A stretch of DNA of 64,000 bases from an uncultured Spirochaetota bacterium (GTDB taxonomy: Bacteria; Spirochaetota; Spirochaetia; SZUA-6; Fen-1364), in contig CAVTHO010000007.1 of the NCBI GenBank assembly GCA_963734545.1, positions 384,001 to 448,000 on the forward strand. The letters are read 5' to 3'. The notes under the pieces are model-generated. The model ran no database searches and was not told the origin of the DNA. It saw nothing but the letters and a program-made list of their open reading frames with translations. Within the stretch, counting starts at the first letter, position 1; each line of letters opens with the position of its first letter. Shown piece after piece: positions 12,838-52,751 of the stretch. A program made the position numbers and the translations under genes.

Positions 12838-13762
12838 ATGAAGATTGCCATGATCGGGTCGGGGGCCATGGGCTCCCTTTTCGGGGGAAAGCTTTCGCTC
12901 GCCGGACATGAAGTCGTCCTCTACGACGTGTACGAGGAGCATGTGGAAAAGGTCGCGCGGGACGGGCTTTGCATCGAGGATGCCGCCACGGGTGCGGTCA
13001 CCACGGCCCGCCCTCGGGCGAGCGTTGACCCCGGAGCCGTCGAGGGATCAGAGGTTCTCGTGTTCTTCGTCAAGTCGACGGCAACCGGGCAGGCGGCGGC
13101 CCAATTTGCGCCGTTCGCGGGAAAAGATACAATCGCTCTCACACTCCAGAACGGCCTGGGCAATGAGGGGATCATCCGCCGCTTCTTCGGCCCCGAGAGA
13201 ACAGCGGCAGGGGTCACCTCCCAGGGTGCGACATTCCTCGGTCCCGGCCGCATCCGGCATGCCGGCAAGGGACCCACCCATATCGCCATGTCGGACGGGA
13301 AGAACGAGAAGCTCGCCGCACTTGCGGAGGCTCTGGGCAGGGCCGGATTCGAGACTCACGTGGAGAAAGACGTGGCCGCGCTCGTGTGGAGCAAGCTGGT
13401 GATCAATGTGGGCATCAACGCGCTCACGGCAATCAGCGGGCAGCCCAACGGGAAGCTGCTGGAGTCCGAGGAAGCGAAGGCTGTCATGGCGGACCTCGTG
13501 GCAGAAGCGGTGGCGGTGGCCAGGGCGAGCGGCATCCGCATTGCCTACGAGGACCCGCTTGCCACTGTCTACGGCGTGGCGGGAAGAACAGGGGCAAACC
13601 GCTCTTCCATGCTGCAGGATTTCGACAAGGGGCGTCGAGACGGAAATCGACTTCATGAACGGCGCAATCGTTCGGGAGGCTGCCGCCCGGGGCGTCGCGG
13701 TGCCCGTGAACCTCACCATCACCCGGCTGATCAAAATGCTGGAGAAGGCGGGGAAGGCGTGA
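12838..13762 (+). CDS. panE: 2-dehydropantoate 2-reductase, with a +1 frameshift near 13630
   Basis: GSGAMG, VKS, LQNGLG, WSKLVINVGIN.LTA, SSMLQD; continues in another frame as TEIDFMNGAIV to the stop at 13762. Confidence 0.88.
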
Positions 13763-15006
13763 TCAATGCGCGGGAAAAGAAGCTTCTCTCGCGTATCGAC
13801 CGGGATGAGCTCGTGCGCCTCACCTCGGATCTCGTGCGCATCGATTCCGTCATCCGGCCCGAAACAGGCGGCACCGAGCGGGACGTCGTCACCCATATCG
13901 CGGGCTGGATCAGACGCGAGCTCGCCCTGGAGCCATTGATCGATGAGGTGGAACCGGGCAGGCAGAACATCATCGTCACCCTCGATTCGGGCGTGCCGGG
14001 ACCGTGCCTCATGCTGGAAGGTCACACGGACGTGGTGAGCGAAGGCAGCCGGGAGAGCTGGACGCACGATCCCTTCGGAGGGGAAGTCATTGACGGGCGG
14101 ATCTACGGCCGGGGTGCCTGCGACATGAAAGCGGGGATCGCGGTTGCCCTCGCCGTCGTCAAGGCCTTCCGCACGGCGGGTGTCCCGTGGGCCGGCAGGA
14201 TCCGGCTGGGTCTCGTGTGTGATGAGGAAGGAATGATGCTCGGCATCAAGCATTTCATCCGCAAGGGGCACGCGGATGACGTCAATGCCTGTCTTGTGCC
14301 CGAGCCCGAAGAGAACAATCTCTGCCTCAGCATGAAGGGGGCTATCCGGGCCGTCCTGCGGGTGCACGGCAGGATGGCGCATGGAGCAATGCCGCTCGCG
14401 GGAATCAATCCCAACACGCGATTGGCGAGGATCATCCTCGCCTTCGAGCGGTTCGAGGCGGAAGAAAAGACCCGCTGCGGGAAGGACGAGTTCCTCGGGC
14501 TGCCCTCCGTCACTTTCACGGTGGTACAGAGTCCTCCGGCGGGAAGCCCTGCGCAGCTCAATGTCATGCCGGGCGAGGCACAGGCGTTCATCGACATCCG
14601 CACCACCCTGGCGCAGAACCATGATGCGGTCAGGGAGAACCTTCGCAGGATCCTCCGTGACCTTGCGGCGGCGGATCCTGACTTCAGCGCAGACTTGGAT
14701 TTCATCGAGGACCGCCCCGTGGTCGGTATCTCGAAGGAAGAGCCGATCGCCAGGGTGTCGGCGGAGGCATTCAGGGAGATAACGGGCAGGGAGCCGGTCT
14801 GGAACGGCGTGCCGGGCGCAACGGATGGCACCTTTCTCAGCTCCGAGAAGCACATCCCATGCCTGGTCAATGGTCCAGGCCCGCGCCACATTCCCCACCA
14901 GGCCGACGAGTACGTGGAGATCGACGAGCTGGAGGAATGCGCAAAGATCTACGTGCTTTCGGTGTCCAGGTACCTGTCTCAGACTGATATCTCAGGGACG
15001 CGTTGA
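13759..15006 (+). CDS. M20 family amidohydrolase (ArgE/DapE-like)
   Basis: GTG start overlaps the panE stop (GTGA). EGHTDVV, GRGACDMKAG, DEE, EPE, GATDG, HQADE. Confidence 0.9.
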   Translation: MINAREKKLLSRIDRDELVRLTSDLVRIDSVIRPETGGTERDVVTHIAGWIRRELALEPLIDEVEPGRQNIIVTLDSGVPGPCLMLEGHTDVVSEGSRESWTHDPFGGEVIDGRIYGRGACDMKAGIAVALAVVKAFRTAGVPWAGRIRLGLVCDEEGMMLGIKHFIRKGHADDVNACLVPEPEENNLCLSMKGAIRAVLRVHGRMAHGAMPLAGINPNTRLARIILAFERFEAEEKTRCGKDEFLGLPSVTFTVVQSPPAGSPAQLNVMPGEAQAFIDIRTTLAQNHDAVRENLRRILRDLAAADPDFSADLDFIEDRPVVGISKEEPIARVSAEAFREITGREPVWNGVPGATDGTFLSSEKHIPCLVNGPGPRHIPHQADEYVEIDELEECAKIYVLSVSRYLSQTDISGTR

Positions 15007-18314: not shown

Positions 18315-19474
18315 ATGAAGAAAGCTCTCGGTGTGCTTCTCGCTGCAGCGCTGCTTCTCGCCTTTGTCGGGTGCCAGCAGCCGGCACCAAAGGAATGGAC
18401 CGTTCCGTTCCTGAACTCCCTCACCGGCCAGATTGCGAGCATAGGTGAGTACCTCGAGTGGGGCGCGGAACGCGCTGCCAAGGAGATCAATGACGCCGGC
18501 GGAATCAAAGGCAAGCCGGTCAGGGTGGTCGGAGTGGACACCGCTCTGGACCCGCAGAAGGGCTCTGTTGAAATGGCCCGGCTGGTGAAGGATACGCTGG
18601 TCGCGCTGGGACCCGTGCCCGAGCCCGTCATCATGGCGGCCATGCCCATCGCGGTCGAGAACGGCATGGTGTCCATGACCGCGACGACCTCGCTGGAGTA
18701 TGCGCAGAAGTTCTTCCCCTGGACGGTGAGCTGGTTCCCCTCCACGGAAGAACGGCTTGCTCCGCTGGTAGCAGCGTGGGCCAAGCAGTTCCCTGAGATG
18801 AAGCAGGTCGTGCAGTTCGTCGAGCCGTACGGACCGTGGCCTGGAATGGCGGACGCGCACGTGAAGGGACTGGAAGGCCTTGGCCTCAAGGTTCTGGACA
18901 AGGTCGAGGTGCCCGACGAACGCCGTCACATTCGGACCGCTCGTCGTGAAGGCCCTCAATGCGAAGCCTGACGGCATGGTGTTCGTATGCAATGCCGACG
19001 GCAACGGCAAAGCTCATCAAGGAGCTCAAGAGCCGTGGATGGAAGAAGATGGACCACCTGCTGGTCTTCAGCAGCGGCGACGCTCCCGAGCTCTACGCGA
19101 CCGGCGGCAAGGACATCAACGGGGTGGAAATCTACAACTACATCAACCCGAATCTCGACAATCCCCGCTGGAACGCCTTCAAGGAGGCCTACGCGGCCGC
19201 GCACAACGGCAACCAGCCCCCGAGCCTCTCCACCAACTACTATGACGCCCTGTACATGATCAAGGATGCAATCGAAAAGACGGGTGTCACGGGCAGCCCG
19301 AGCAAGCTCAAGGCGGAGCGCAAGTTGATCGCGGATTACCTCCAGAATGTAAAGGGGTTCCACGGCATCATGTTCGACTGGGACATGAAGGACGGAGTCC
19401 CCACGAACAAGCCGACCTTTATCTTCCAGATCGAGGACGGCAAGAAAGTCCTCGTGCAGGAAGTGAAGGGCTGA
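18315..19474 (+). CDS. Liv-type ABC substrate-binding lipoprotein, with frameshifts near 18913 and 19000
   Basis: Lipobox FVGC, SLTG, EINDAGGIKG. Three overlapping frames join into one type I periplasmic-binding protein (YYDALY). Confidence 0.82.
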
Positions 19475-43116: not shown

Positions 43117-44364
43117 ATGTCGGAACTCAATCCCTTCAAGATTGCCCAGAGCCAGCTCGATACCGCGGCAGCCACCCTCGGCCTGGACGACGCTACTCAC
43201 CAGCTCCTGCGCTGGCCCCAGCGCGAGCTGCGCGTCACCATCCCCGTGCGCATGGACGACGGGAAGGTGCGCGTGTTCAATGGCTACAGGGTGCAGTACA
43301 ATTCGGCCCGGGGCCCTGCAAAGGGGGGACTGCGCTGGCACCCGGACGAGACGATCGACACGGTGCGCGCTCTGGCGGCATGGATGACGTGGAAGACCGC
43401 GGTGGTGGATCTGCCGCTGGGGGGCGGCAAGGGCGGGGTGACCTGCAATCCAAAGGAATTGTCGTCAACCGAGAAGGAGCGGCTGGCACGGGCATACATC
43501 AGGGCAATCGGCCAGTTCATCGGCGACCGCAAAGACGTGCCTGCCCCGGATGTCTACACCACGCCTGAGATCATGGGATGGATGCTGGATGAGTACGAGA
43601 TCCTGGTCGGCCAGCACCAGCCAGGGGTGATCACGGGCAAGCCGTTGCCGCTGGGCGGGTCTGCGGGGCGCGACGATGCCACTGCGCGCGGCGGCATCTA
43701 CGTGACCCGTGAGGCCGGACGCGCCCTCGAGCTCGAGCTTACCGACCAGACGATGGCGATACAGGGCTTCGGCAACGCGGGGCAGCACGCCGCTCTCCTG
43801 GGGACGGAGCTTCTGGGAATGAAGCTCGTCGCCTGCTCCGACACACTGGGCGGGATCTACAACCCCCGAGGGATCGACGCCAGGGCCGTGGTCGACCACA
43901 AGAACAGGACCGGAAGCCTGGAGGGGCTGCCCGGGGTCGACCGGATCACCAATGAGCAGCTCCTGGAGTTGAACGTGCGTGTCCTTTTCCCCGCGGCGCT
44001 GGAAAACACGATTACCGATGCCAATGCGGCGAAGGTCAAGGCAAGGATCGTCTGCGAGCTTGCCAACGGACCGACCACTCCGGAGGCGGACAAGATACTC
44101 TTCGATAATGGCGTCTTCGTGCTTCCGGATTTCCTTGCCAACGCGGGTGGGGTGACGGTGTCATACTTCGAGCAGGTGCAGAACGCGTACAATTTCTACT
44201 GGGAGCTGGGCCTCGTCCACGAAAGGCTCGACGAAAAAATGACGAGGGCCTTTCTCGGCGTATACGAGATGCAGAAGCGTCAAAAAGTGAACATGCGGGA
44301 AGCGGCCTACCTCGTGTCGGTGAGCCGTGTCGCCGAAGCATGCCGGATGCGGGGGTGGGTCTGA
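43117..44364 (+). CDS. gdhA: Glu/Leu/Phe/Val dehydrogenase, most likely glutamate dehydrogenase
   Basis: [52 protein letters not shown] Shine-Dalgarno; TTGTGC-17-TAGAAT upstream. Confidence 0.92.
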
Positions 44365-44511
44365 GGATCGATTTTGTAGGCCGGCAACAATATCCAAAAA
44401 AAACATAATCATGCATTGACGTTTGCGGAAGAGTATGCTAACGTTGGCCCGCCGTTTCCGGCACGTTCTCACGCGAAGACTATAACGCCAGGAAAAACAG
44501 TGGAAGTCAGA

Positions 44512-44979
44512 ATGCACGAGACGATCGATGGGATCATCTCCCGTCATGGGACAGACCGCACCCGACTGGTCGAAATCCTTCACGACCTGCAGCATGAGTG
44601 CCGGTATCTGCCGGAGGACGCGCTGCGGACCGTTGCCAGGAAGCTCGCCATTCCACTCATAGAAGTCTACAAGGTCGCGACCTTCTACAAGGCGTTTACC
44701 CTCGAGCCGAGGGGCAGGCACCTGCTGACGCTCTGTACGGGCACCGCGTGCCACGTCAGAGGCTCACCCAAGCTGCTGGACGAGGTGCAGGGACTCTGCG
44801 GCATCGCTCCCGGGGAGACCACCCCTGACGGGAACCTCACCCTGGAAACCGTGAACTGCCTCGGTGCGTGCGCGCTGGGTCCTGTCGCTGTCCTGGACGA
44901 GACCTACCATCACCACATGAGCTGGGCCAGGCTGAAGACCCTTCTCGGCACGATCATCCACGGAAGGGCTCAAGCATGA
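44512..44979 (+). CDS. NuoE/HydC-like [2Fe-2S] subunit
   Basis: VATFY, CTGTACH, CLGAC. Confidence 0.9.
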   Translation: MHETIDGIISRHGTDRTRLVEILHDLQHECRYLPEDALRTVARKLAIPLIEVYKVATFYKAFTLEPRGRHLLTLCTGTACHVRGSPKLLDEVQGLCGIAPGETTPDGNLTLETVNCLGACALGPVAVLDETYHHHMSWARLKTLLGTIIHGRAQA

Positions 44980-46837
44980 AGAGCATGCCGGCGCTCGAGT
45001 CGTTTGCAGATCTGAGACACCTCGCTGAGAAATGCCTCAAAAAGGATAGAAAATACGCGCGAACAGCGATCGTGTGCGGCGGCACGGGGTGCAGCGCGTG
45101 CGGCTGCCGCGCAATCAGGGAGAACCTGGACAAGGAAGTAGCGAAGCAGGGCCTCGGCAAGAGGGTCAAGGTGAAGTCCACAGGATGCCATGGCTTCTGC
45201 GAGCAGGGCCCGCTCGTCATCATCGAGCCCGAGGGTTTCTTTTACTGCAAGCTGGCACCGGAGGATGTTTCTGAGATCGTCACGGAGACCCTTGGAGCAG
45301 GCAAGGTCGTGGAGCGGCTCCTGTACGCGGACCCCCGCTCAGGGCAGAGGGTGGCACGGGAGGCTGACATCCCGTTCTACAAGGCGCAGGATCGCGTTCT
45401 CCTGGACCGCAATCGGCTCATCGATCCGCGGGACATCCGGGAAGCTGTCGCGCAGGGCGGCTATGCGGCCTTCCTCAAAGCGCTCACCGGCATGACGCCC
45501 GAAGGCGTCATCGCCGAAATCGCCGCGGCGGGATTGCGCGGGCGGGGGGAGCCGGCTTTCCCACGGCAAAGAAATGGGAATCCTGCAGGCGCGCCCATGG
45601 CCGGCCGAAGTACGTTGTCTGCAACGCGGACGAGGGCGACCCGGGCGCATTCATGGATCGCAGTCTCCTGGAGGGCAACCCCCACGCCGTGATCGAAGGC
45701 ATGCTCATCGGCGCCTACGCAATCGGCGCTGAGCACGGGTTTATCTATGTACGCAAGGAATACCCCCTGGCCGTCGAGAATACGAAAATCGCAATCAGGC
45801 AGGCCGAGGAGCTGGGTCTCCTGGGCGCCAACATCCTGGGGACGAAGTTCTCATTCGACGTCAAGGTGGCGCGGGGCGGAGGAGCCTTCGTGTGCGGGGA
45901 ATCCACTGCCCTCATGGCGTCCCTGGAGGGACGGGTCGGAGAGCCCCGGCCCAAGGACATCCACACGACCGAGCGAGGCTTCCTGAACCTGCCGACCAAT
46001 CTCAACAACGTCGAGACCTGGGCGAATGTGCCCCTGATCATCGCCCGGGGAGCATCGTGGTTTGCGGCCAAGGGCACCGCGCACAGCAAGGGAACCAAGA
46101 TCTTCGCCCTGACAGGCGCGGTCCGTAATACGGGCCTCGTCGAGGTCCCCATGGGGACAACGCTCCTGCATATCCTCCACGACATCGGCGGCGGCTCGGC
46201 AAATGGAAAGCCCATCAAGGCCATTCAGATAGGCGGTCCCTCAGGCGGGTGCCTGCCCGAAGGCATGTTCTACCTCCCGGTGGACTTCGAGGAGCTGACC
46301 CGCAGCGGCGCCATGGTCGGATCCGGCGGGCTCGTGGTCATGGACGAAGGCACGTGCATGGTGGACGTGGCCCGCTACTTTCTCAACTTCCTGCTCGATG
46401 AATCCTGCGGGACGTGCGTGCCCTGCCGGGTAGGCGTCCGCAGGCTGCACGAGCTGGTCTGTGACATCGCAGAGGGTCGGGCAACAGACGCCACGCTCGC
46501 GCTGATAGAGGAGACCGCGGAGACCGTCGCCACGGCATCCATCTGCGGTCTTGGCAAGACCGCGCCGAATCCGCTCCTTACCGCGCTTCGCTACTTCCGG
46601 GAGGAGTACCTTGCCCACGTGCGCGAGAAGCGATGCCCGGCGGGCGTCTGCAAGGCGTTGATCAGATTTGAGATCGATCAGACCGCGTGCAATGGCTGCG
46701 GTGCCTGCGCCAAGGCCTGCCCGCACCGCGCCATCAGTCAACCCGGCCCAAAGGAGTACCGGATCGAGACGGAACAGTGCCGAAAATGCGGGATCTGCAA
46801 AGACGCGTGCAGGCACGCTGCGGTCCGGGTAGCGTGA
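44976..46837 (+). CDS. NuoF/HydB-like FMN/NAD(H) subunit with N-terminal [2Fe-2S] and C-terminal 2[4Fe-4S] domains, with a frameshift near 45548
   Basis: CGGTGC..CHGFC, RGRG(G)AGFP, NADEGDPGAFMDRS, GGPSG, ESCGTCVPCR, H...RCPAGVC and two ferredoxin-type Cys motifs. Confidence 0.9.
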
Positions 46838-46847
46838 GGGAGGACCC

Positions 46848-47546
46848 ATGGCAGAGCAGGTGACGCTGCGGATCGATGGCTCGCAGGTGCGGGCCCCCCA
46901 GGGTACGTCGGTGCTGGAAGCAGCCCTGGAATACGGGATCTGCATCCCTCACCTCTGCCACATGAAGGGAGTAACGCCGTCGGGAGTCTGCCGGCTGTGC
47001 ATCGTGGAGGTCGAGCGGCACGGGACCTCGCGGGTGACCTCCTCCTGCACGCTGGAAGCCGAGGAGGGGATGATCGTTCACGCGCACACGGAGCGCATCA
47101 TCCGCATCCGCAGGAACCTTGCCGAGCTTCTCGTTGCCGAGGCTCCCAACTCGCGGGCCATCCAGGACGTTGCAGCCCGGTGCGGCGTGAACGTCGTCCG
47201 TTATCCCTTCCGACATGAGAGCTGCGTCCTCTGCGGCAGGTGCGTGAGAGTCTGCAAAGAGGTCTGGCAGGCCGCAGCGCTGGGCACCGTGGGCCGTGGA
47301 GAACGGCTGCGGGTATCTCTTCCTTTTGGAAAGCGTCCGGATACGTGCAAGCGCTGCAACGCGTGCTTTACCGTCTGCCCTATGACCATTACTCCCTGCG
47401 ACGGGCCCATGCGCCCGGGCGAGGAGTACCTCTGCAACAAGTGCGCCTCCCAGCTCAGCATGAGCGCGGAATCTCCGGACAGCTGCGTCCGCTGCCGACT
47501 GGGCAAGGGCTTCGACTGCATCCGGCGGGTGCCGATCAACTACTAG
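46848..47546 (+). CDS. NuoG/HydA N-terminal-like Fe-S protein without a catalytic domain
   Basis: IPHLC..GVCRLC..SC [2Fe-2S], CVLCGRCVRVC, CKRCNACFTVCP and an extra Cys-rich tail. Confidence 0.85.
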   Translation: MAEQVTLRIDGSQVRAPQGTSVLEAALEYGICIPHLCHMKGVTPSGVCRLCIVEVERHGTSRVTSSCTLEAEEGMIVHAHTERIIRIRRNLAELLVAEAPNSRAIQDVAARCGVNVVRYPFRHESCVLCGRCVRVCKEVWQAAALGTVGRGERLRVSLPFGKRPDTCKRCNACFTVCPMTITPCDGPMRPGEEYLCNKCASQLSMSAESPDSCVRCRLGKGFDCIRRVPINY

Positions 47547-47565
47547 CGCCAAAGGAGAAAAGACG

Positions 47566-49155
47566 ATGAACCTGCAAAGACCCAATGCCAACGACGTGAC
47601 ACAGACAGCCAACCGGTCCGAAAGCGTCGTGCCGGGCAGCGGGCTGTGCACCCGTTGTATTGACGGGTGCCGAGGCAACTGCGAGGTATTCCGTGCGTCG
47701 TTCCGCGGCCGCGAGGTGATCTACCCGGGTCCCTTTGGCGAGATAAGCGCAGGAGGGGACAAGAACTATCCCGTCGATTACTCCCACCTCAATATCCAGG
47801 GCTATGCGATGGGCGCCGCGGGTCTGCCCGATGGTGTGGAGCCGGGCCCGGATACTGCAATCTTCCCCGCCGTGGACACGCGGACAGAGTACGGATGGAG
47901 CTCCAAGGTGCCGATGCGGCTGCCGGTCTTCACCGGCGCGCTCGGGTCCACCGAGATTGCCCGCAGGAACTGGGAGCACTTTGCCATCGGCGCCGCCATC
48001 TCGGGCATCACCCTGGTGTGCGGAGAGAACGTGTGCGGCATCGACCCCGGCCTCGAGCTGAATGCAAATGGAAAGATCTCCAAATCGCCTGACATGGACC
48101 GCCGCATAGAAACCTACAAGAGGTTCCACGAAGGCTTTGGCGAGATCCTCGTGCAGATGAACGTGGAGGACACGCGGCTGGGCGTCGCGGAGTATGTCCG
48201 CGCAAAGCACGACCTGAAAACCATCGAGCTGAAGTGGGGTCAGGGGGCCAAATGCATCGGCGGTGAGATCAAGGTGAAAAGCCTCGAACGCGCGCGGGAG
48301 CTGAAGTCCCGCGGATATATCGTCACGCCGGACCCGACCCTCGAGCCCGTGGAAAAGGCATTCCGCGACGGCGCGATCAAGGAGTTCGAGCGGCACTCGC
48401 GCCTGGGGTTCGTGAGCGAGGAGGGCTTCTTCAAGGAGATCGAGCGGCTGCGCGGCCTCGGCTTCGCGCGCATCACCCTGAAAACCGGCGCGTACTCCAT
48501 GCGCGAGCTCGCCATGGCGCTGCGATACGCCTCCGAGGCCGGGATCGACCTGCTCACGATCGACGGCGCGCCCGGCGGAACCGGAATGAGCCCATGGAGA
48601 ATGATGGAGGAGTGGGGTGTCCCCACGTTCTACCTGCAGTCCCTCGCCTGGGAGTTCTGTGAAAAGCTGATGGCGCGCGGCCTTCGCGTTCCCGACATCG
48701 CCATCGCCGGAGGATTCTCCACGGAGGACCACATCTTCAAGGTGCTCGCCATGGGCGCCCCCTATGTGAAGGCGGTCTGCATGGGCCGGGCCATGATGAT
48801 CCCCGGAATGGTGGGCAAGAACATCTCCTATTGGCTCCAGGGCAATGACCTGCCCTCCACCGTGTCCCGTTTCGGCAGCTCACCGCAGGAGATCTTCGTC
48901 TGCTACGACGAGCTCGCGGAAAAGTACGGGGCCCGCATGAAAGAGATCCCTTTTGGCGCTATCGGAATCTACAGCTTTGCCCAGAAGCTTAAGGTAGGCC
49001 TCCAGCAGCTCATGGCAGGCACGCGGAACTTCCGACTCTCCACGATCAGCAGACGGGATCTCATGTGCCTGACCGAGGAGGCGGCGAAAATCTCCGGGCT
49101 GCCCTATATCATGGAAGCCTATCGCGCGGAGGCGGAGCAGATTCTCGCTCGCTGA
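47566..49155 (+). CDS. Stand-alone glutamate synthase FMN-binding domain family protein
   Basis: ELKWGQGAK..GG, LKTG, IDGAPGGTGMSP, AGG, GRAM; N-terminal CTRCIDGCRGNC. Confidence 0.85.
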   Translation: MNLQRPNANDVTQTANRSESVVPGSGLCTRCIDGCRGNCEVFRASFRGREVIYPGPFGEISAGGDKNYPVDYSHLNIQGYAMGAAGLPDGVEPGPDTAIFPAVDTRTEYGWSSKVPMRLPVFTGALGSTEIARRNWEHFAIGAAISGITLVCGENVCGIDPGLELNANGKISKSPDMDRRIETYKRFHEGFGEILVQMNVEDTRLGVAEYVRAKHDLKTIELKWGQGAKCIGGEIKVKSLERARELKSRGYIVTPDPTLEPVEKAFRDGAIKEFERHSRLGFVSEEGFFKEIERLRGLGFARITLKTGAYSMRELAMALRYASEAGIDLLTIDGAPGGTGMSPWRMMEEWGVPTFYLQSLAWEFCEKLMARGLRVPDIAIAGGFSTEDHIFKVLAMGAPYVKAVCMGRAMMIPGMVGKNISYWLQGNDLPSTVSRFGSSPQEIFVCYDELAEKYGARMKEIPFGAIGIYSFAQKLKVGLQQLMAGTRNFRLSTISRRDLMCLTEEAAKISGLPYIMEAYRAEAEQILAR

Positions 49156-50006
49156 GCGGCATCGTCCGCCGATTCGTCCAACCCGGCTTTTCGCGCAAAT
49201 GTCAGCGCAAGCATGCCGAAAAGCAGCCTCTTCTGACGCACCCGGCGAAAACCGATTCGTGTCATCATCCGGGGCAGCTCGACGAAGTCCGGATAGTAGG
49301 AAAGGCTCTTCGAGATGTAGCTGTAGACCTCAGGGTTCCCATGGAACAGCCACCCCCAGAAGCCGCCCCAGAAGCCCAGCAGCCTGAGCTGGATATTTCG
49401 CAGGCGGGGAACATGTGAGGCGGAGAAATCGAGAAATGCCGCCGTGCCGCCCGGTTTCAGCACTCGATAGATCTCCTGAAAGGTAGTGGCGAGATGGGGT
49501 GAGTTTCGCAGCGCATACCCGCCGGTAACGATATCGTAGGACGCATCGTCAAAGGGAAGCTCGTTCATGTCCGCCTGATGAAACCTGATGTTCGCAAGAT
49601 CCGTCCGCAACCGTGCGCGGCGAAGCATCTCGGGGTTCAAATCTACTGCATCGATTCTGCCGTATGGATACTGGTGTGCAAGAAGCCGGCTGATGTCTCC
49701 GGTGCCGCAGGCCAGATCGAGGCAGGCGAATAATTGTGGCGTCGAAGCTGCGTCACGCGCGGAGTCTCTCGGAAGCCTTGCCAGCATGATCTTTTTCCAG
49801 CGCCCGTCCCGTCCAAAGGAGAGTAGACGCGTGATGACATCATACCGGACAGCAACGACAGAGAAGACTTTTCGTGTGTAGTCCAGCTTACTGCGCGGCG
49901 CCGAAAGGTCGAAATCCTTCAGGCGATATCGGAATCGGGAACGAAGGTCATCCTGCGCTGTGCCATGGACGATGTGCCTGCCGTCAGACGTCTGCTTCGC
50001 GCGCAT
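49119..50006 (-). CDS. UbiE/MenG-like class I SAM methyltransferase
   Basis: F..VA.RYD....LSFG.D..WK, LDLACGTGD, LPFDDASYD, EIYRVLKPGG, YSYI..S. Start codon uncertain. Confidence 0.85.
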   Translation of the reverse strand: MRAKQTSDGRHIVHGTAQDDLRSRFRYRLKDFDLSAPRSKLDYTRKVFSVVAVRYDVITRLLSFGRDGRWKKIMLARLPRDSARDAASTPQLFACLDLACGTGDISRLLAHQYPYGRIDAVDLNPEMLRRARLRTDLANIRFHQADMNELPFDDASYDIVTGGYALRNSPHLATTFQEIYRVLKPGGTAAFLDFSASHVPRLRNIQLRLLGFWGGFWGWLFHGNPEVYSYISKSLSYYPDFVELPRMMTRIGFRRVRQKRLLFGMLALTFARKAGLDESADDAAQRARICSASAR

Positions 50007-50051
50007 GGCGGATTGCCTTTCTCATCCTGATAACCTAACTTCTGCAGTAGA

Positions 50052-51227
50052 ATGTCGTCAACAACTCTCGCCCCGGTCGTGGCGCCGGCACACACAACAG
50101 CGGCTGCAATTTACGGGATTTCCACAAGCGTCCCCACGACATCCTATACACAGCAGTTCGCCGTAGATTTTCTGCAGAAGCTTTCGGTCTTCTCCGATAA
50201 GCAGCGTCGGTTTCTTCGGCGTCTCTACCAGAACACGGCAATCGACAAGAGGCATACAGTCATCGACGATTACGGGAAAGATCCCTCCACGCACACCTTC
50301 TACCCGAAGAACGATCAGCTGCTGCCTGAGCCGGGGTTGGAGGCTCGCAACGACGTGTTCATTCGCGAATCCAATCGCCTGTCAGAACAGGCGGCACGAT
50401 CGCTTCTTTCATCACTGCCGCTGTTCGACCCGCACAAAATCACTCACCTCATTACGGTCACGTGCACCGGCTTTTCGGCTCCCGGATTCGACTATCACCT
50501 CGTGAATGCGCTGGGGCTTCGACAGGACATCAAGCGCTCCCACATCGGCTTCATGGGGTGCTATGCGGGGTTTCCCGCCATGAGGCTCGCCCGCGATATC
50601 TGTGTCGCGAACCCCGGTGCTCACGTGCTGATAGCAGCCGTGGAGCTGTGTTCCCTGCATTTCCAGCAAAAGACGGATCTTGATTTCATGATTGCCAATG
50701 CGCTTTTCGCAGACGGCGCCGCGGCTGTTCTTGTCGGGCCGGCCTCGGATGCCGAGCGGGGACAAAGCGAGGGCGGGTACTTCAGACAGGGCGCGCAGTT
50801 GGTGCTCAACGGCTTCGCGTCGCGGATTATTCCTGAAAGCGAACAGGACATGGCCTGGAAAATCGGCGAACACGCCTTTGACATGCGCGTGTCTGCCTAT
50901 GTCCCTCGACTCATCGAACAGAATATTCGATCGATAGTTGACGGCCTCCTCGGCGCCACGGATGCGACATTCGGCGATATCGACATTTGGGCCATACATC
51001 CGGGCGGCCGCGCAATTCTCGACCGAAGCGCGGCTGCGTTGGGCATCCCCGCGTCTGCGCTGATTCATTCGTACGAAGTCTTGCGCGAGTACGGGAACAT
51101 GAGCTCGGCAACCATTTTTTTTGTTCTCCAGCGAATTCTGAAAAGCAGCGAGCCCGGTACCGTTTTCGCCACCGCATTCGGTCCCGGGCTTACCGTAGAA
51201 TCAGGGCTCTTTCGAAAGCTCCCGTGA
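50052..51227 (+). CDS. Type III polyketide synthase
   Basis: Catalytic triad in MGCYAG, IHPGG and YGNMSS; also ELCSLH, LFADGAAA, FGPGL. Confidence 0.95.
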   Translation: MSSTTLAPVVAPAHTTAAAIYGISTSVPTTSYTQQFAVDFLQKLSVFSDKQRRFLRRLYQNTAIDKRHTVIDDYGKDPSTHTFYPKNDQLLPEPGLEARNDVFIRESNRLSEQAARSLLSSLPLFDPHKITHLITVTCTGFSAPGFDYHLVNALGLRQDIKRSHIGFMGCYAGFPAMRLARDICVANPGAHVLIAAVELCSLHFQQKTDLDFMIANALFADGAAAVLVGPASDAERGQSEGGYFRQGAQLVLNGFASRIIPESEQDMAWKIGEHAFDMRVSAYVPRLIEQNIRSIVDGLLGATDATFGDIDIWAIHPGGRAILDRSAAALGIPASALIHSYEVLREYGNMSSATIFFVLQRILKSSEPGTVFATAFGPGLTVESGLFRKLP

Positions 51228-52012
51228 CGCGCCCGCCGTTTCCATTCGTGCGCGGGAGAAGCAGGCTGCCTGAGCTGATGGACGGCCCGGACAGCGACCG
51301 TTGCCGCCTCCTTGCTACGCTGGCGCAGTTTCGACTGACGAACCGTTTGTTCTCCCGATATCGAACGTTCCTTACCCGGTATGTCATGCGCGACATGGAA
51401 TCGCTGCTGCGAGAGGGACCCGGACTTTCCAACAGGGAGCACAGCAGTTCGGGCCGGTCGTTCACGGTGCTCGAAATCGGCGCGGGCGGCTGCGATGTGG
51501 CGATCTGGCTGGCAGGAGCCTGCCGGAAGCGCGGAATCCAGGCGCACATAACCTGCATAGACAACGATGCGAGAATCGTGAGCTATGCGAGGCACCGAAT
51601 CCTGGCCTCCGGCGTTTCCGACAGGATCGAGATCCTGCAGCTTTCAGCGTTCGATGTCGACCAGCTCCCGGATTACGACTACGTGATCTGCCGGAACACC
51701 CTGCATCATTTTACTGAAGACCAGGCCTGCACGCTGCTTCGGCTGATGAGCAAGAAGGCGGCTCGATTGTTCTTTGCCAGCGATCTTGCACGATCGCGAG
51801 CCGCATGGATCGCATTCTGGGCCTTTTCCTCGATATTTCTTCACGGCAGCTTCGCGCGCTACGACGGACTGCTCTCCCTCGCGCGCGCCTTTGTCCGGAC
51901 CGAGCTTCACGCGCTGATACCCGCTGCAGGCACTCGATACCAGCCGCGTGTCCGCCGTTTCTTCCCTGCTTTGCTTTGTGTTGTCGGAGCAGGCACGGCG
52001 GGGGGAAGTTGA
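51224..52012 (+). CDS. SAM-dependent methyltransferase, PKS-associated type
   Basis: GTGA overlap with the PKS stop; ELMD, VLEIGAGG, LHHF, DL.RS, DGLLS..RAF. Confidence 0.85.
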   Translation: MTRPPFPFVRGRSRLPELMDGPDSDRCRLLATLAQFRLTNRLFSRYRTFLTRYVMRDMESLLREGPGLSNREHSSSGRSFTVLEIGAGGCDVAIWLAGACRKRGIQAHITCIDNDARIVSYARHRILASGVSDRIEILQLSAFDVDQLPDYDYVICRNTLHHFTEDQACTLLRLMSKKAARLFFASDLARSRAAWIAFWAFSSIFLHGSFARYDGLLSLARAFVRTELHALIPAAGTRYQPRVRRFFPALLCVVGAGTAGGS

Positions 52013-52114
52013 CGGACCGCACATCGCGGGGCCGTTTTCAGCAGGGTGAACGAGACCGCGCTGTACGCCATTCCCGCGCGTGCGGGGCAGAACAATCAGG
52101 GAAATGCTCTCATT

Positions 52115-52187
52115 TAGCGGCGAGGGGACTCGAACCCTTGACACTGCGGATATGAGCCGCATGCTCTACCATCTGAGCTACGCCGCC
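52115..52187 (-). tRNA. tRNA-Met (CAT), probably elongator
   Basis: GGCGGCGTAGCTCAG...TGCGG-CTCATAT-CCGCA...GGTTCGAGTCC...GCCGCTA. An Ile2 (lysidine) identity is not fully excluded. Confidence 0.9.
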
Positions 52188-52206
52188 ATGATATTCTTGC
52201 GCCGGG

Positions 52207-52235
52207 ACTATAGCGGCGGGTGGTGTATTTGTCAA
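52207..52235 (-). promoter_or_regulatory. sigma70 promoter of tRNA-Met
   Basis: TTGACA-17 bp-TATAGT on the minus strand. Confidence 0.8.
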
Positions 52236-52358
52236 TCGTTGCAGCCGCGATACCTCACTTGACCCCGCTCCGGCCTGAAAGTAAGATGCTCGAAATGGCG
52301 TCGCCTCCCGATTCGACGAATCGCAGTCCCGCGGACGCTCTTGCCCGAAGGGACCGCC

Positions 52359-52751
52359 GTGGAGCATAAGTGCGGACTCACGGTCCGGTCATACGAGTGC
52401 GATGGATACGGTCACGTCAACAATGCCAATTACCTTCATTACCTCGAGTTTGCGCGGCATGAATATCTGCGCGACAACGGCATATCCCTCTCGGAGCTGC
52501 GCGAATCCGGCTACGGGCTCGTCGTTGCCCGCATTGCCATCGATTTCCGACGGCCGTCAACGACTGACGACTCTCTCCTCATCCTGACCCATCCATTGCG
52601 CAAGACCAGGATCGGGGGAGTTCTTGCCCAGCGAATCATGCGTGAAGCGGAGACCGTTGCCGAGGCGGAGGTGACCTGGGTCTGTGTCGATGCGCGCGGC
52701 AAGCTCGCGCGGCTTCCCGCGGCGTTCGACCGCGAGGGCCTGTCACCGTGA
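52359..52751 (+). CDS. Acyl-CoA thioesterase (YbgC/FcbC hotdog family)
   Basis: VRSYECDGYGHVNNANYLHYLEFAR; promoter TTGACC-17-TAAGAT at 52259-52287. Confidence 0.9.
   Translation: MEHKCGLTVRSYECDGYGHVNNANYLHYLEFARHEYLRDNGISLSELRESGYGLVVARIAIDFRRPSTTDDSLLILTHPLRKTRIGGVLAQRIMREAETVAEAEVTWVCVDARGKLARLPAAFDREGLSP

Follow-up and report, generated by a model that had tools for sequence, protein, structure and literature searches.

Does the gene cluster that follows gdhA in an uncultured Spirochaetota bacterium encode an electron-bifurcating enzyme whose third substrate is handled by a flavoprotein related to glutamate synthase? The original prediction, made from a 64,000-nucleotide stretch of DNA (here the window), proposed such a module from NuoE-, NuoF- and short NuoG-like genes followed by a GltS-like FMN gene. 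A Bfu-GltSF enzyme appears to be the best reading of the locus, held tentatively and with somewhat less than even confidence. A literature search found no printed description of an enzyme of this type, in agreement with the earlier remark that no biochemical description was known.

Gene order and the interrupted bfuB

All genes of the cluster lie on the forward strand, and the gene set and order originally proposed were confirmed by Pfam, NCBIfam and coordinates. The first gene, gdhA (43117..44364), encodes a glutamate dehydrogenase of 415 aa that matches Pfam ELFV_dehydrog (247 bits) and ELFV_dehydrog_N (185 bits) and, over residues 1-415, NCBIfam GdhA_Arch at 595 bits, which is under the equivalog cut-off of 750. 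It ends about 148 bp 5' of bfuC, and in the AT-richer spacer (44365..44511) neither a terminator-like nor a promoter-like site was called; the consensus GGAA-N6-TTCC is absent from it. The bfuC gene (44512..44979; PF01257, 156 bits) encodes a NuoE/HydC-like thioredoxin-like [2Fe-2S] subunit of 155 aa when read from the ATG at 44512; the ORF is open already from a TTG at 44416, and homologues in related loci have 157-167 aa. Its stop overlaps the start of bfuB (44976..46837), encoding the NuoF/HydB-like FMN and NAD(H) subunit, in an ATGA. Spacers of 10 and 19 bp, each with a strong ribosome-binding site, then precede bfuA (46848..47546), encoding a short Fe-S adaptor of 232 aa like NuoG and the N-terminus of HydA (Fer2_4 and Fer4 families), and gltSF (47566..49155), encoding a GltS-like FMN TIM-barrel protein of 529 aa. 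No terminator-like site was called between the genes from gdhA to gltSF. The bfuC-bfuB-bfuA-gltSF genes are a single operon with gdhA directly 5', and these junctions bear out the tight coupling noted earlier. A Pfam scan of the 51 longest non-overlapping ORFs of the window and a few extra frames returned no hydrogenase (hoxYH included), FDH, POR, GltB or GltD families, as had been claimed for hydrogenase and FDH.

The bfuB gene is out of frame as assembled, which the original prediction overlooked. The upstream frame is in sense to 45548 (...GLRGRG) and the downstream frame from there (GAGFPT...), and three-frame translations place the change in a run of six G (45544..45549) that is one G short; a -1 shift restores GLRGRGGAGFPT, and GLRGRGG[GA]GFPT is read through this point in all eight intact relatives. 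The break is probably an assembly error, because at least two further genes of the window are broken, a binding-protein gene at about 18960 and a ketopantoate-reductase gene at about 13640. These two genes would equally suit a pseudogene-accumulating genome, in which the frameshift would be genuine, the operon decaying and the module dead in this organism. Such decay seems very unlikely, however: the loss of one base from a homopolymer is a classic assembly error, the two halves of bfuB are otherwise fully conserved with every cofactor motif kept, and the downstream genes are intact, with best matches at 92% (GltSF) and 90% (BfuA) identity.

The BfuCBA subunits and the GltSF flavoprotein

The Bfu (HydABC-type) family is defined by the domains of BfuB, BfuC and BfuA in Schut et al. 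2022 (PMC9304861). All of these domains were found by Pfam in the window genes and, judged by its sequence, BfuCBA is a member of the family as published. The two pieces of BfuB together carry an N-terminal thioredoxin-like 2Fe-2S domain, Complex1_51K, SLBB, NADH_4Fe-4S and a C-terminal Fer4 domain (2x[4Fe-4S]). The fingerprints that led the original prediction to liken this subunit to bifurcating HydB (GDPGAFMDRS, GGPSG, VDF and CPAGVC) are all present in the translation, and the C-terminal piece aligns end to end with bifurcating HydB/NfnB chains (1-426/428; 585 bits with 7t2r_B), whereas NuoF/FdsB chains align over 1-354/362 only, at about 310 bits or less. Counterparts of 7t2r_B C438, H525, C531 and C536 are conserved and that of C476 is Ala, and the B2/Zn site has the H525-equivalent His and three Cys; the family-defining paper gives this His as absent from non-bifurcating homologues. 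In NCBIfam, BfuC matches HoxE, NuoE and FDH gamma best, each time under cut-off.

BfuA carries a [2Fe-2S] motif, two CxxCxxCxxxC motifs and a C-terminal CxxC...CxxC tail with no catalytic domain; as expected for a subunit said to lack an H-cluster or Mo/W domain, only Fer2_4 and 4Fe-4S dicluster domains were found by Pfam. Invariant in 69 aligned sequences are Cys 37, 48, 51 and 67; 126, 129, 132 and 136; 167, 170, 173 and 177; and 196, 199 and 216, and Cys213 is kept in at least 90% of them. The best PDB match (9mqx_A; 111 bits, residues 3-184) is WorA, and the His/Cys cluster motif after the 2Fe-2S domain is absent from both proteins. These features suggest that BfuA is most like a WorA-type adaptor for a separate catalytic module.

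For GltSF, the likeness to glutamate synthase is clearer in fold than in sequence. PF01645 matches at 56.9 bits and only in part (residues 282-412, profile positions 185-309 of 369), NCBIfam gave no match, a profile search of PDB sequences returned nothing at E<=0.01, and hhalign to canonical GltB aligned only 33 columns, with a GGTG-SP-type motif common to both. The AF2 model (pLDDT 87.7, pTM 0.90) has as its top Foldseek matches Fd-GltS 1ofd_A (E 9.4e-10, TMq 0.48), 1llw and 7mfm_G, with FMN 2-hydroxy-acid oxidases next; TMq is 0.47-0.49 for GltS against 0.39-0.45 for FMN 2-hydroxy-acid oxidases and type II IPP isomerase, and GltS is the best fold match in both models. The earlier designation as a GltS FMN domain thus stands for the fold, and the sequence likeness behind it is weak. 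The protein has neither an amidotransferase nor a GXGXG domain, and its N-terminal C28-x2-C31-x3-C35-x3-C39, with all four Cys invariant in 100 of 100 sequences, is presumed to be an Fe-S site. Relatives 70-92% identical occur over many phyla of Bacteria and Archaea, and paralogues exist at 47-58% identity; no fused GltSF forms of 927 aa or more were found, which is weak evidence against a Bfu-GltSF enzyme. GltSF is an as yet uncharacterised flavoenzyme that is strongly conserved and only a distant relative of glutamate synthase.

In 80 related GltSF loci, surveyed over the flanks available, the neighbourhoods are dominated by genes of glutamate, glutamine and ammonium metabolism and by NrpR: neighbours include NrpR (23 loci), GAF-ANTAR (14), gdhA relatives (11, of which 8 are strong matches), GltB (8), GlnA (7), GltD (7), CPSase (6) and Amt (4). 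As canonical GltB and GltD stand beside GltSF in some of these loci, it is no simple replacement for them. Beside GltSF also stand a PadH-like NAD(P)H flavoprotein (6 loci) and a HydN-like 4Fe-4S protein (5 loci), so that it fits a catalytic unit with exchangeable donor modules. PORg-cluster (2-oxoacid:ferredoxin oxidoreductase gamma-subunit) genes lie less than 5 kb away in 4 of the 80 loci; the one checked, in L041, is of the pyruvate/2-ketoisovalerate type.

With so distant a resemblance to GltS, GltSF may act on a substrate other than 2-oxoglutarate even if the complex is real, for example a different imine, 2-oxo acid or 2-hydroxy acid, or a metabolite that contains nitrogen. The short GltB alignment, the partial Pfam and missing NCBIfam matches, the missing amidotransferase and GXGXG domains, the paralogues and the nearly equal fit of the oxidase and isomerase folds all agree with such a substrate, as does an 875-aa uncharacterised PPDK_N-domain protein that is the immediate neighbour of GltSF in 14 loci. 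The top rank of GltS in both models, the nitrogen-gene neighbourhoods and the proximity of gdhA, adjoining here as well as near GltSF elsewhere, argue against it, and this alternative appears rather unlikely. The choice of 2-oxoglutarate, for its part, draws on the remote fold likeness and the nitrogen-gene neighbourhoods only, and should be regarded as provisional.

Linkage of BfuB with GltSF and the possible reaction

The pairing of Bfu and GltSF genes is found repeatedly, in lineages unrelated to one another and with the genes variously oriented. BfuB was found in the flanks of 9 of the 80 GltSF loci: in L016 the bfu genes adjoin gltSF on the same strand, with translational coupling of all four, L012 and L055 have a GltSF paralogue on the same strand directly after bfuA, in the archaeal L025 and L032 BfuB and GltSF are divergent, in L037 they are convergent, and in L028 nrpR stands between them. 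For 12 of the best 120 GltSF matches, the longest contig is identical in bp to that of one of the best 120 BfuA matches (including 2792, 4302 and 4312 bp), and the 12-row GltSF clade of the window has seven rows with matching GltSF/BfuA contigs. Synteny and phylogeny of the B subunit were among the checks put forward with the original prediction. One clade holds nine of the ten GltSF-near BfuBs with support 99 (134-row FastTree, 55-row IQ-TREE), none of 500 label shuffles was as clustered as these BfuBs, and all ten as one group were not rejected (AU p 0.52).

Two separate enzymes, merely co-regulated and neighbours because both draw on the ferredoxin pool, are a less probable but still serious alternative. 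GltSF would then be a self-contained ferredoxin-dependent nitrogen-assimilation flavoenzyme that takes electrons through its N-terminal Cys4 site, and BfuCBA would pair with a POR, hydrogenase or FDH elsewhere or act alone. No BfuB was found in the available flanks of 71 of the 80 loci, and of the 23 loci whose flanks reach 9 kb or more on each side just 2 have one; GltSF therefore generally works without a Bfu module nearby. In two Dehalococcoidales loci (L053, L065), BfuCBA of the same clade comes immediately after POR genes of the pyruvate type (PorB scoring 412-415 bits, the cut-off being 405), with GltSF 5-8 kb off, an arrangement already predicted in print as Por-Bfu (PMC9304861). Pairwise distances of BfuB and GltSF in the ten linked pairs are uncorrelated (Mantel r 0.03, p 0.40), and one GltSF cluster has been named automatically in the Atlas as 'putative Ferredoxin-dependent glutamate synthase'. 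Against separate enzymes stand the translational coupling of the four genes in the window and in L016, the GltSF paralogues directly after bfuA, the recurrence of the linkage over several orientations and phyla, the lack of an active site in BfuA, which resembles an adaptor in need of a partner, and the failure to find another redox partner in the window. The original prediction of a bifurcating enzyme is partly supported: it is favoured by the Bfu signatures, the adaptor-like BfuA, recurrent synteny and the BfuB clade, and weakened by the many loci that have no BfuB, the POR linkage and the lack of distance co-variation.

For the Bfu-GltSF enzyme, the operon product would most likely be of Type 2. 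In BfuBC, NAD(H) would bind at FMN, and ferredoxin at the 2x[4Fe-4S] domain in the C-terminal part of BfuB; BfuA would be a short WorA-like wire that lacks an active site, and GltSF, an FMN TIM-barrel with its four-Cys site, would be the catalytic module. There, 2-oxoglutarate and free ammonia would be reductively aminated to glutamate, jointly driven by NADH and reduced ferredoxin (confurcation). The physical association of BfuCBA with GltSF, the substrate and the direction of electron flow are all inferred, and the whole reading is advanced with corresponding reserve. The glutamate couple, with an E0' taken as about -140 mV, stands far above NAD(H), and so ferredoxin coupling would be needed only at low ammonium. 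Computed with this assumed value and assumed metabolite concentrations, E' of the 2-oxoglutarate + NH4+/glutamate couple is -338 to -406 mV at 100 to 1 uM NH4+, and at micromolar ammonium it would come to lie below NAD(H) and above ferredoxin. In this it would resemble the third substrates of middling potential (H2, formate, NADPH and F420) that Schut 2022 (PMC9304861) tabulates for Bfu enzymes.

The same complex could conceivably run in reverse, with NADH as donor, 2-oxoglutarate + NH4+ as high-potential acceptor and a second electron pair going uphill to ferredoxin (2 NADH + 2-OG + NH4+ + 2 Fd(ox) -> 2 NAD+ + Glu + 2 Fd(red)), so that glutamate synthesis would supply reduced ferredoxin to, for instance, pyruvate synthase. 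The standard potential and the POR and PORg-cluster genes mentioned above are consistent with this direction. It is nonetheless a purely inferred and improbable one: in all Bfu enzymes described in the sources consulted, NAD serves as the high-potential leg and the electrons of the A branch are mid-potential, and the NrpR link implies low ammonium, under which the couple loses its high potential. Confurcation, if true, would let the cell assimilate ammonium with high affinity and save the ATP that GS-GOGAT consumes, and the module beside GltSF suggests, without proving, that anaerobes have a further, novel means of driving this assimilation.

Comparison with known systems

The HoxEFU diaphorase of bidirectional [NiFe] hydrogenase supplies the top NCBIfam matches of BfuC (HoxE, 146 bits) and BfuA (HoxU, 119 bits), but these scores are far under the equivalog cut-offs of 224 and 333 and the window has no hoxYH. 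Canonical glutamate synthases (Fd-GltS 1OFD/1LLW, NADPH-GltS GltBD, GltAB-GudB 7MFM) share with GltSF the FMN TIM-barrel as nearest solved fold, the GGTG-SP-type motif and the nitrogen-assimilation link; the title of the 7MFM entry indicates that a GltS can bind a glutamate dehydrogenase. GltSF differs from them in having no amidotransferase, central or GXGXG domain and in its N-terminal Cys4. The Nfn-Bfu transhydrogenase NfnABC (StnABC; PMC12018979, PMC11829005) likewise combines a Bfu core with a glutamate synthase-derived third-substrate part; that part is a GltD/NfnL-like small-subunit NADPH/FAD domain fused to BfuA (PMC12018979), whereas in the window it is a separate protein akin to the large-subunit FMN domain. 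Por-Bfu is a predicted, uncharacterised enzyme that Schut et al. 2022 (PMC9304861) place in Chloroflexi and syntrophic Proteobacteria. It is related in that the POR-linked BfuBs of L053 and L065 sit in the same 12-row clade as the BfuB of the window, but here POR genes are lacking and gltSF follows bfuA.

WorABCSL, the tungsten aldehyde oxidoreductase-Bfu of Acetomicrobium mobile (PDB 9MQX), shares a BfuBC core and a short BfuA ending in a Cys4 element. PMC12318220 describes WorA as a short BfuA of about 240 aa with neither an A3 cluster nor a catalytic domain, whose C-terminal Cys4 zinc finger and tail recruit the catalytic module and place cluster A4 within 10.7 A of the module's cluster. 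WorA is the best solved match of BfuA, and WorB matches BfuB at 553 bits; the C-terminal CxxC...CxxC of BfuA and the N-terminal Cys4 of GltSF are both invariant, zinc being only putative in BfuA. The catalytic module of WorABCSL, as described there, consists of tungstopterin WorL and polyferredoxin WorS, whereas the window would use an FMN TIM-barrel with one N-terminal Cys4, and its proposed third substrate would be a nitrogen-assimilation metabolite in place of an aldehyde.

Gene layout and the Bfu module

The five genes named in the original prediction, gdhA, bfuC, bfuB, bfuA and gltSF, were confirmed in this order on the plus strand at 43117-49155, and every motif that it quoted was found in the translation. 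The product of gdhA (43117-44364, +) carries both ELFV domains, the dimerisation and the catalytic one (184.9 and 247 bits in Pfam), and its residues 1-415 match the NCBIfam family GdhA_Arch. After a spacer of 148 bp follows bfuC (+, from the ATG at 44512 to 44979), which encodes a NuoE-type 2Fe-2S protein and whose end overlaps the start of bfuB (44976-46837, +) in ATGA; bfuA (46848-47546, +; 232 aa) begins 10 bp after bfuB and is preceded by GAGGGAGGA, and gltSF (47566-49155, +; 529 aa) begins 19 bp after bfuA and is preceded by AAAGGAG. No terminator-like site was called between any of these genes. An amino-acid ABC transporter (Pfam) is encoded upstream of the gdhA-gltSF stretch. The Pfam scan of the window, covering its 51 longest non-overlapping ORFs and some extra frames, recovered no hydrogenase, formate dehydrogenase, POR, GltB or GltD, in line with the earlier statement that no hydrogenase or formate dehydrogenase gene is nearby. 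Directly 3' of gltSF lies a gene for a UbiE/COQ5-type methyltransferase (49119-50006, - strand), and further downstream are genes for a type III polyketide synthase with chalcone/stilbene synthase domains (50052-51227), a second methyltransferase (50987-52012) and a 4HBT thioesterase (52341-52751); judging from these domains, the genes at 49119-52748 resemble a small cluster for lipids of the alkyl-resorcinol or pyrone type.

In the available text of Schut et al. 2022 (PMC9304861), the HydABC-type electron-bifurcating (Bfu) family is defined by four InterPro domains in BfuB (Nuo51 FMN, SLBB, NuoF 4Fe-4S region and 4Fe-4S ferredoxin-type; IPR011538, IPR019554, IPR019575 and IPR017896), one in BfuC (NuoE-type thioredoxin-like [2Fe-2S], IPR002023) and at least two in BfuA (minimally a 2Fe-2S and a 4Fe-4S ferredoxin-type domain). 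In Pfam, BfuC matches PF01257 (156.3 bits), BfuB matches PF01512 (134.9 bits), PF10531 (27.9) and PF10589 (100.1) and holds Fer4 families at residues 375-424 of its C-terminal piece, and BfuA matches Fer2_4 (70.1 bits) together with several Fer4 dicluster families. An N-terminal [2Fe-2S] site (B5) is indicated in BfuB by PF01257 at 31.7 bits and by a match to a clostridial 2Fe-2S ferredoxin model, and a C-terminal 2x[4Fe-4S] region (B3, B4) by the alignment of its C-terminal piece with HydB and NfnB chains, which reaches residue 426/428. Over residues 1-426/428 this piece aligns best with the NiFe-HydB chain of Acetomicrobium mobile (7t2r_B, 585 bits), followed by the bifurcating chains 9bov_B, 7q4w_B, 9n5u_B, 8a6t_B and 7p5h_B, whereas NuoF and formate-dehydrogenase beta chains align no further than residues 354-362, at about 310 bits or less. 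The histidine of the B2/Zn site (H525 in A. mobile NiFe-HydB), described in the same text (PMC9304861) as kept in nearly all BfuB and missing in non-bifurcating homologues, is retained relative to 7t2r_B, as are C438, C531 and C536, with C476 replaced by alanine. The Bfu domains, the H525 equivalent and the end-to-end match to bifurcating chains bear out a HydB-type rather than NuoF-type B subunit, as had been predicted; by the published domain criteria and the B2/Zn histidine, the products of bfuC-bfuB-bfuA are, at the level of sequence, a Bfu module. Among representatives clustered at 50% identity, the nearest to BfuB is a protein of 774 aa (P0242; 64% identical, match from residue 346 onward) whose N-terminus is about 155 aa longer than those of the other BfuB representatives and which, from its length, may be a BfuC-BfuB fusion; several further representatives have 740-1055 aa.

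Bfu membership also calls for intact genes for the three subunits, and bfuB is out of frame as assembled, a break that the original prediction overlooked even though the genes that it described are real. The frame of the N-terminal 2Fe-2S domain reaches ...GLRGRG at 45548 and that of GAGFPT...GDPGAFMDRS... begins at the same base; from the frame translations, the G-run at 45544-45549 has one G too few, and 8/8 intact relatives read GLRGRGG[GA]GFPT at the break. Elsewhere in the window, a Peripla_BP_6 solute-binding gene (+) comes as two ORFs, 18315-18971 (profile positions 2-173) and 18959-19474 (positions 200-342), and a PanE/ApbA ketopantoate reductase gene (+, about 13600-13770) loses its frame near 13640 and therefore appears fused to the next M20 peptidase ORF (12838-15003). 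The window thus has three breaks within 64 kb, each in a gene that is conserved apart from the break and one at a homopolymer, which indicates assembly indels; the bfuB frameshift is probably an assembly error, real decay being the less probable cause. That the operon is dead, as the bfuB break taken at face value would suggest, seems very improbable. The classical heptamer of programmed frameshifting has the form X XXY YYZ; none is present in the incoming frame and other window genes are broken too, so a programmed frameshift in bfuB was set aside.

BfuA had been predicted to lack an H-cluster or Mo/W domain, and it indeed holds Fer2_4 and Fer4 families only. Its motifs (an N-terminal 2Fe-2S site, two CxxCxxCxxxC and a C-terminal CxxC...CxxC) show almost no variation across 69 sequences, most of them none. 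The best solved relative is WorA (9mqx_A; 111 bits, residues 3-184), the short BfuA of the tungsten aldehyde oxidoreductase-Bfu WorABCSL of A. mobile, and in neither protein is the 2Fe-2S domain followed by a His/Cys cluster motif. Type 2 Bfu enzymes, in the available portions of the Bfu literature, have a short BfuA without the A3 and A5 sites, and their cluster A4 is fed by an extra catalytic subunit. According to the accessible text of PMC12318220, WorA is without cluster A3 and the usual C-terminal domain, bears a Cys4 zinc finger and recruits a separate catalytic module through its C-terminal end, which brings A4 to within 10.7 A of the cluster in that module. The BfuA of the window likewise lacks A3 and a C-terminal catalytic/A5 domain and has a C-terminal Cys4 element; because of this WorA-like short BfuA, the module can be classed as a Type 2 Bfu, a bifurcating core awaiting a partner. 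Synteny is what points to GltSF as the putative binding partner of BfuA.

GltSF and its genomic neighbourhoods

The partner gene had been read as a stand-alone glutamate synthase (GltS) FMN domain, a likeness that proved weaker than stated. Residues 282-412 of GltSF match PF01645 at 56.9 bits (gathering score 20.4), over only profile positions 185-309 of 369, and a structure model built from 100 sequences (pLDDT 87.7, pTM 0.90) has glutamate synthases as its top Foldseek matches, namely 1ofd_A (E 9.4e-10, TMq 0.48, 497 columns), 1llw, 7mfm_G and 1ofe_A. Close behind (TMq 0.39-0.45) are FMN-dependent lactate/glycolate/mandelate oxidases, flavocytochrome b2 and type II IPP isomerase. This model replaced, together with its fold search, a poor earlier one from 16 near-identical sequences (pLDDT 58.7). 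On the other side, NCBIfam returned no family for GltSF or for a paralogue in locus L012, so that no curated equivalog model recognises either, PDB sequences searched with the GltSF family profile gave no match at E<=0.01, and hhalign against the canonical GltB of locus L004 aligned 33 columns at a probability of 33%, around ...TIDGAPGGTGMSP... GltSF is therefore only remotely GltS-like. Unlike the canonical glutamate synthase large subunit (GltB/GlsF), it has no class II glutamine amidotransferase, central or GXGXG domain in its 529 aa, and these are absent from the Pfam-scanned window as well; fused forms of 927 aa or more were not found, in a search that is itself weak evidence. An N-terminal C-x2-C-x3-C-x3-C element is invariant in 100/100 sequences, including paralogues at 47-58% identity. 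No biochemical description of GltSF was found in the literature.

All 7999 scored candidates of the GltSF search were significant, the best 120 being 78-92% identical, and in a one-genome-per-species collection 569 stretches encode relatives, of which the best 80 (loci L001-L080) are 70-80% identical. Carriers among these 80 include Omnitrophota, Planctomycetes, Dehalococcoidales, Thermodesulfobacteriota, Nitrospirota and Actinomycetota, as well as Methanoperedens, Methanotrichaceae, Bathyarchaeia, Altiarchaeales and others, and identities of 70-92% extend from Omnitrophota and Dehalococcoidales to Methanoperedens and Bathyarchaeia. When all ORFs within 7 kb of GltSF were clustered and the cluster representatives run through Pfam and NCBIfam, the recurrent neighbours at the 80 loci were nitrogen-assimilation genes. 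NrpR was counted in 23/80 loci, a GAF-ANTAR regulator, an 875-aa PPDK_N-domain protein and hisF in 14 each, gdhA relatives in 11 (8 of them strong matches), hisH in 10, canonical GltB in 8, GlnA and GltD in 7 each, a PadH-like NAD(P)H flavoprotein and carbamoyl-phosphate synthase in 6 each, a HydN-like 4Fe-4S protein in 5, and Amt and the POR gamma subunit in 4 each. Being very widespread, highly conserved and found in nitrogen regulons, GltSF is notable in its own right. Its fold and neighbourhoods favour the reductive amination of 2-oxoglutarate with free ammonia as the reaction that it would catalyse; a substrate other than 2-oxoglutarate, to which the oxidases and the isomerase close behind in the fold search could point, seems improbable.

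Several of these neighbourhoods have features of their own. In Dehalococcoidales, GltSF lies between hisF and hisH (e.g. L053:8159-11590, L040, L041, L049, L059 and L070), often with nrpR directly upstream and overlapping hisF; hisH is also beside GltSF in L042, L046, L058 and L060. The idea that the flanking hisF and hisH form a special ammonia-delivering pair is unsupported, both passing the ordinary NCBIfam HisF/HisH equivalog cut-offs. The 875-aa protein (L020:4514-7138, and e.g. L042, L043, L044, L051, L058, L060, L072 and L078) is encoded on the same strand about 0-30 bp from GltSF in most of its 14 loci; its PPDK_N ATP-binding match is limited to the middle and far under the PEP-synthase cut-offs, and it could serve GltSF as a partner or regulator. 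The PadH-like flavoprotein just downstream of GltSF in 6 loci scores 281 bits, below cut-off, to the phenylglyoxylate dehydrogenase epsilon subunit, and PadH-like and HydN-like proteins (e.g. L058:7830-9218, L060:5179-5652 and L032:4636-6000) may be alternative electron-input modules. Paralogues of GltSF with 47-58% identity and the Cys4 element kept are encoded at L012:7997-9574, L055:7810-9384, L048:11684-13255 and L068:2217-3797; the paralogue comes after GltSF in L048 and L068, with nrpR next in L048. The entry title of 7mfm_G reads 'glutamate synthase, glutamate dehydrogenase counter-enzyme complex', and gdhA adjoins gltSF here and in 11/80 loci, which makes a contact between GltSF and GdhA conceivable. 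The palindromic sequence GGAA-N6-TTCC, which we take to be the NrpR operator consensus, occurs six times in the window (3758, 6711, 7357, 24047, 48351 and 52939) against 1.35 expected, a count reached in 0/100 shuffles; all six sites are outside the stretches just before gdhA and bfuC.

Linkage between GltSF and Bfu genes

BfuB was identified in the flanks of 9/80 GltSF loci, these flanks totalling 978 kb, and in 2 of the only 23 loci whose flanks reach 9 kb or more on each side. The order C-B-A-GltSF of the window recurs in L016; in L012 and L055, C-B-A is followed by the GltSF paralogue and then by GltSF, so that the paralogue, not the conserved orthologue, stands directly after bfuA. In L028, nrpR on the opposite strand separates C-B-A from GltSF, while BfuCBA and GltSF are divergent in L025 and L032 (Methanoperedens, Methanosarcinales) and convergent in L037. 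In L053 and L065 (Dehalococcoidales), pyruvate-type POR genes precede C-B-A, and GltSF is 5-8 kb off. A 2-oxoglutarate synthase was rejected as the identity of this POR, since PorB passes the pyruvate-synthase equivalog cut-off and scores 71-75 bits to the 2-oxoglutarate-synthase model against a cut-off of 579. Among the 120 best GltSF matches, 12 have a longest contig of exactly the same size as that of one of the 120 best BfuA matches, some of these contigs being only 2.8-4.3 kb long and co-location being deduced from equal sizes alone; in a 205-row GltSF tree, the 12-row clade of the window (support 99) has 7 size-matched rows.

A BfuB tree of 134 rows was built from the window, the nine locus BfuBs and 124 representatives, the latter covering at least 340 residues and drawn from the 150 best 50%-identity representatives of the C-terminal piece (26 dropped). 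One 12-row clade (support 99) contains 9/10 of the BfuBs near GltSF, with L012 just outside, and the label was as clustered in 0/500 shuffles. The same clade was recovered by IQ-TREE from 55 rows (a 50-row neighbourhood and 5 outgroups) with an SH-aLRT of 99, and a constraint uniting all ten BfuBs was not rejected (AU p 0.52). Because the representatives had been collapsed at 50% identity, this clade amounts to whatever lies within about 55-72% of the window, and the two POR-linked sets (L053 and L065) are among its members. BfuB and GltSF distances are not correlated over the ten linked pairs (Mantel r 0.03, p 0.40), and the partners therefore appear not to have been inherited as one block.

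Synteny and phylogeny of the B subunit, proposed in the original prediction as a check, thus gave a divided answer, with recurrent linkage and 9/10 BfuBs in one clade on one side, and 9/80 loci and POR-linked sets inside the clade on the other. BfuCBA and GltSF may be independent enzymes that are merely co-regulated, a reading with which the uncorrelated distances and POR-linked sets would agree and to which the repeated C-B-A-GltSF order is less congenial; we consider it rather unlikely, though far from negligible. The existence of a physical Bfu-GltSF enzyme is quite possible without being probable. Of the predicted bifurcating enzyme there remains a Bfu module recurrently linked to a GltS-like gene, but the GltS likeness is remote, loci holding BfuB are few, and some of the Bfu sets are POR-linked.

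Proposed chemistry and comparison with known systems

By analogy with WorABCSL, the best-supported reading is that GltSF would be the extra subunit of a Type 2 Bfu enzyme. For Bfu-GltSF as a whole we infer a mechanism in which cluster A4 of BfuA would exchange electrons with the N-terminal Cys4 site of GltSF, the path continuing to the GltSF FMN. The 2-oxoglutarate/glutamate couple has an E0' of -140 mV, and the objection that it is too positive to need ferredoxin is valid only at standard conditions. With this E0', 0.1 mM 2-oxoglutarate and 50-100 mM glutamate assumed, the computed E' is -338 mV at 100 uM NH4+, -368 mV at 10 uM and -406 mV at 1 uM, while NADH (-280 mV) and ferredoxin (-500 mV) average -390 mV. 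Scarce ammonium could therefore be assimilated by confurcation without ATP, which fits the link to NrpR. A complex that runs in reverse and reduces ferredoxin appears highly unlikely. The computed E' also falls in the range of the mid-potential third substrates of Bfu enzymes in the available Table 1 of PMC9304861.

More broadly, energy-limited anaerobes of both domains could have an undescribed, high-affinity way of assimilating ammonium that needs no ATP and has GltSF as its catalytic core, a proposal that we regard as speculative and on the whole improbable. In such a system GltSF would use low-potential electrons to aminate 2-oxoglutarate with free ammonia; in most lineages the electrons would come straight from ferredoxin or small donor modules, and in the lineage of the window they would be supplied by a Bfu core through confurcation of NADH and reduced ferredoxin. 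Assimilation at micromolar NH4+ would be paid for by the low potential of ferredoxin instead of the ATP of glutamine synthetase, and NrpR would turn the system on when nitrogen is limited. If true, a third substrate from nitrogen assimilation would be a new kind of link between electron bifurcation and biosynthesis, and could explain how anaerobes that live close to the thermodynamic limit obtain scarce ammonium at no cost in ATP. The window offers a compact four-gene operon suited to direct expression and assay.

A full-text literature search found no paper in which a GltS FMN-domain protein works with a module of the Bfu or NuoEF type, and the words 'glutamate', 'GltB' and 'GOGAT' have 0 occurrences in the main text of Schut et al. 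2022 (PMC9304861). In the available text of that survey, 17 BfuB clades are left unassigned, and the known or predicted third substrates of Bfu enzymes are H2, formate, NADPH, aldehydes, pyruvate, CO, F420, quinones and peroxide. The sole 'glutamate synthase' link in the Bfu literature consulted is the GltD/NfnL-like domain of NfnA (PMC12018979, as far as its accessible text goes), which represents another part of glutamate synthase than that of GltSF. What is described here would combine a known modular family with a putative new third module, taken from a very widespread, uncharacterised flavoenzyme family, and WorABCSL, in the available text of PMC12318220, provides a structural precedent for the wiring from A4 to a catalytic module that is proposed for Bfu-GltSF.
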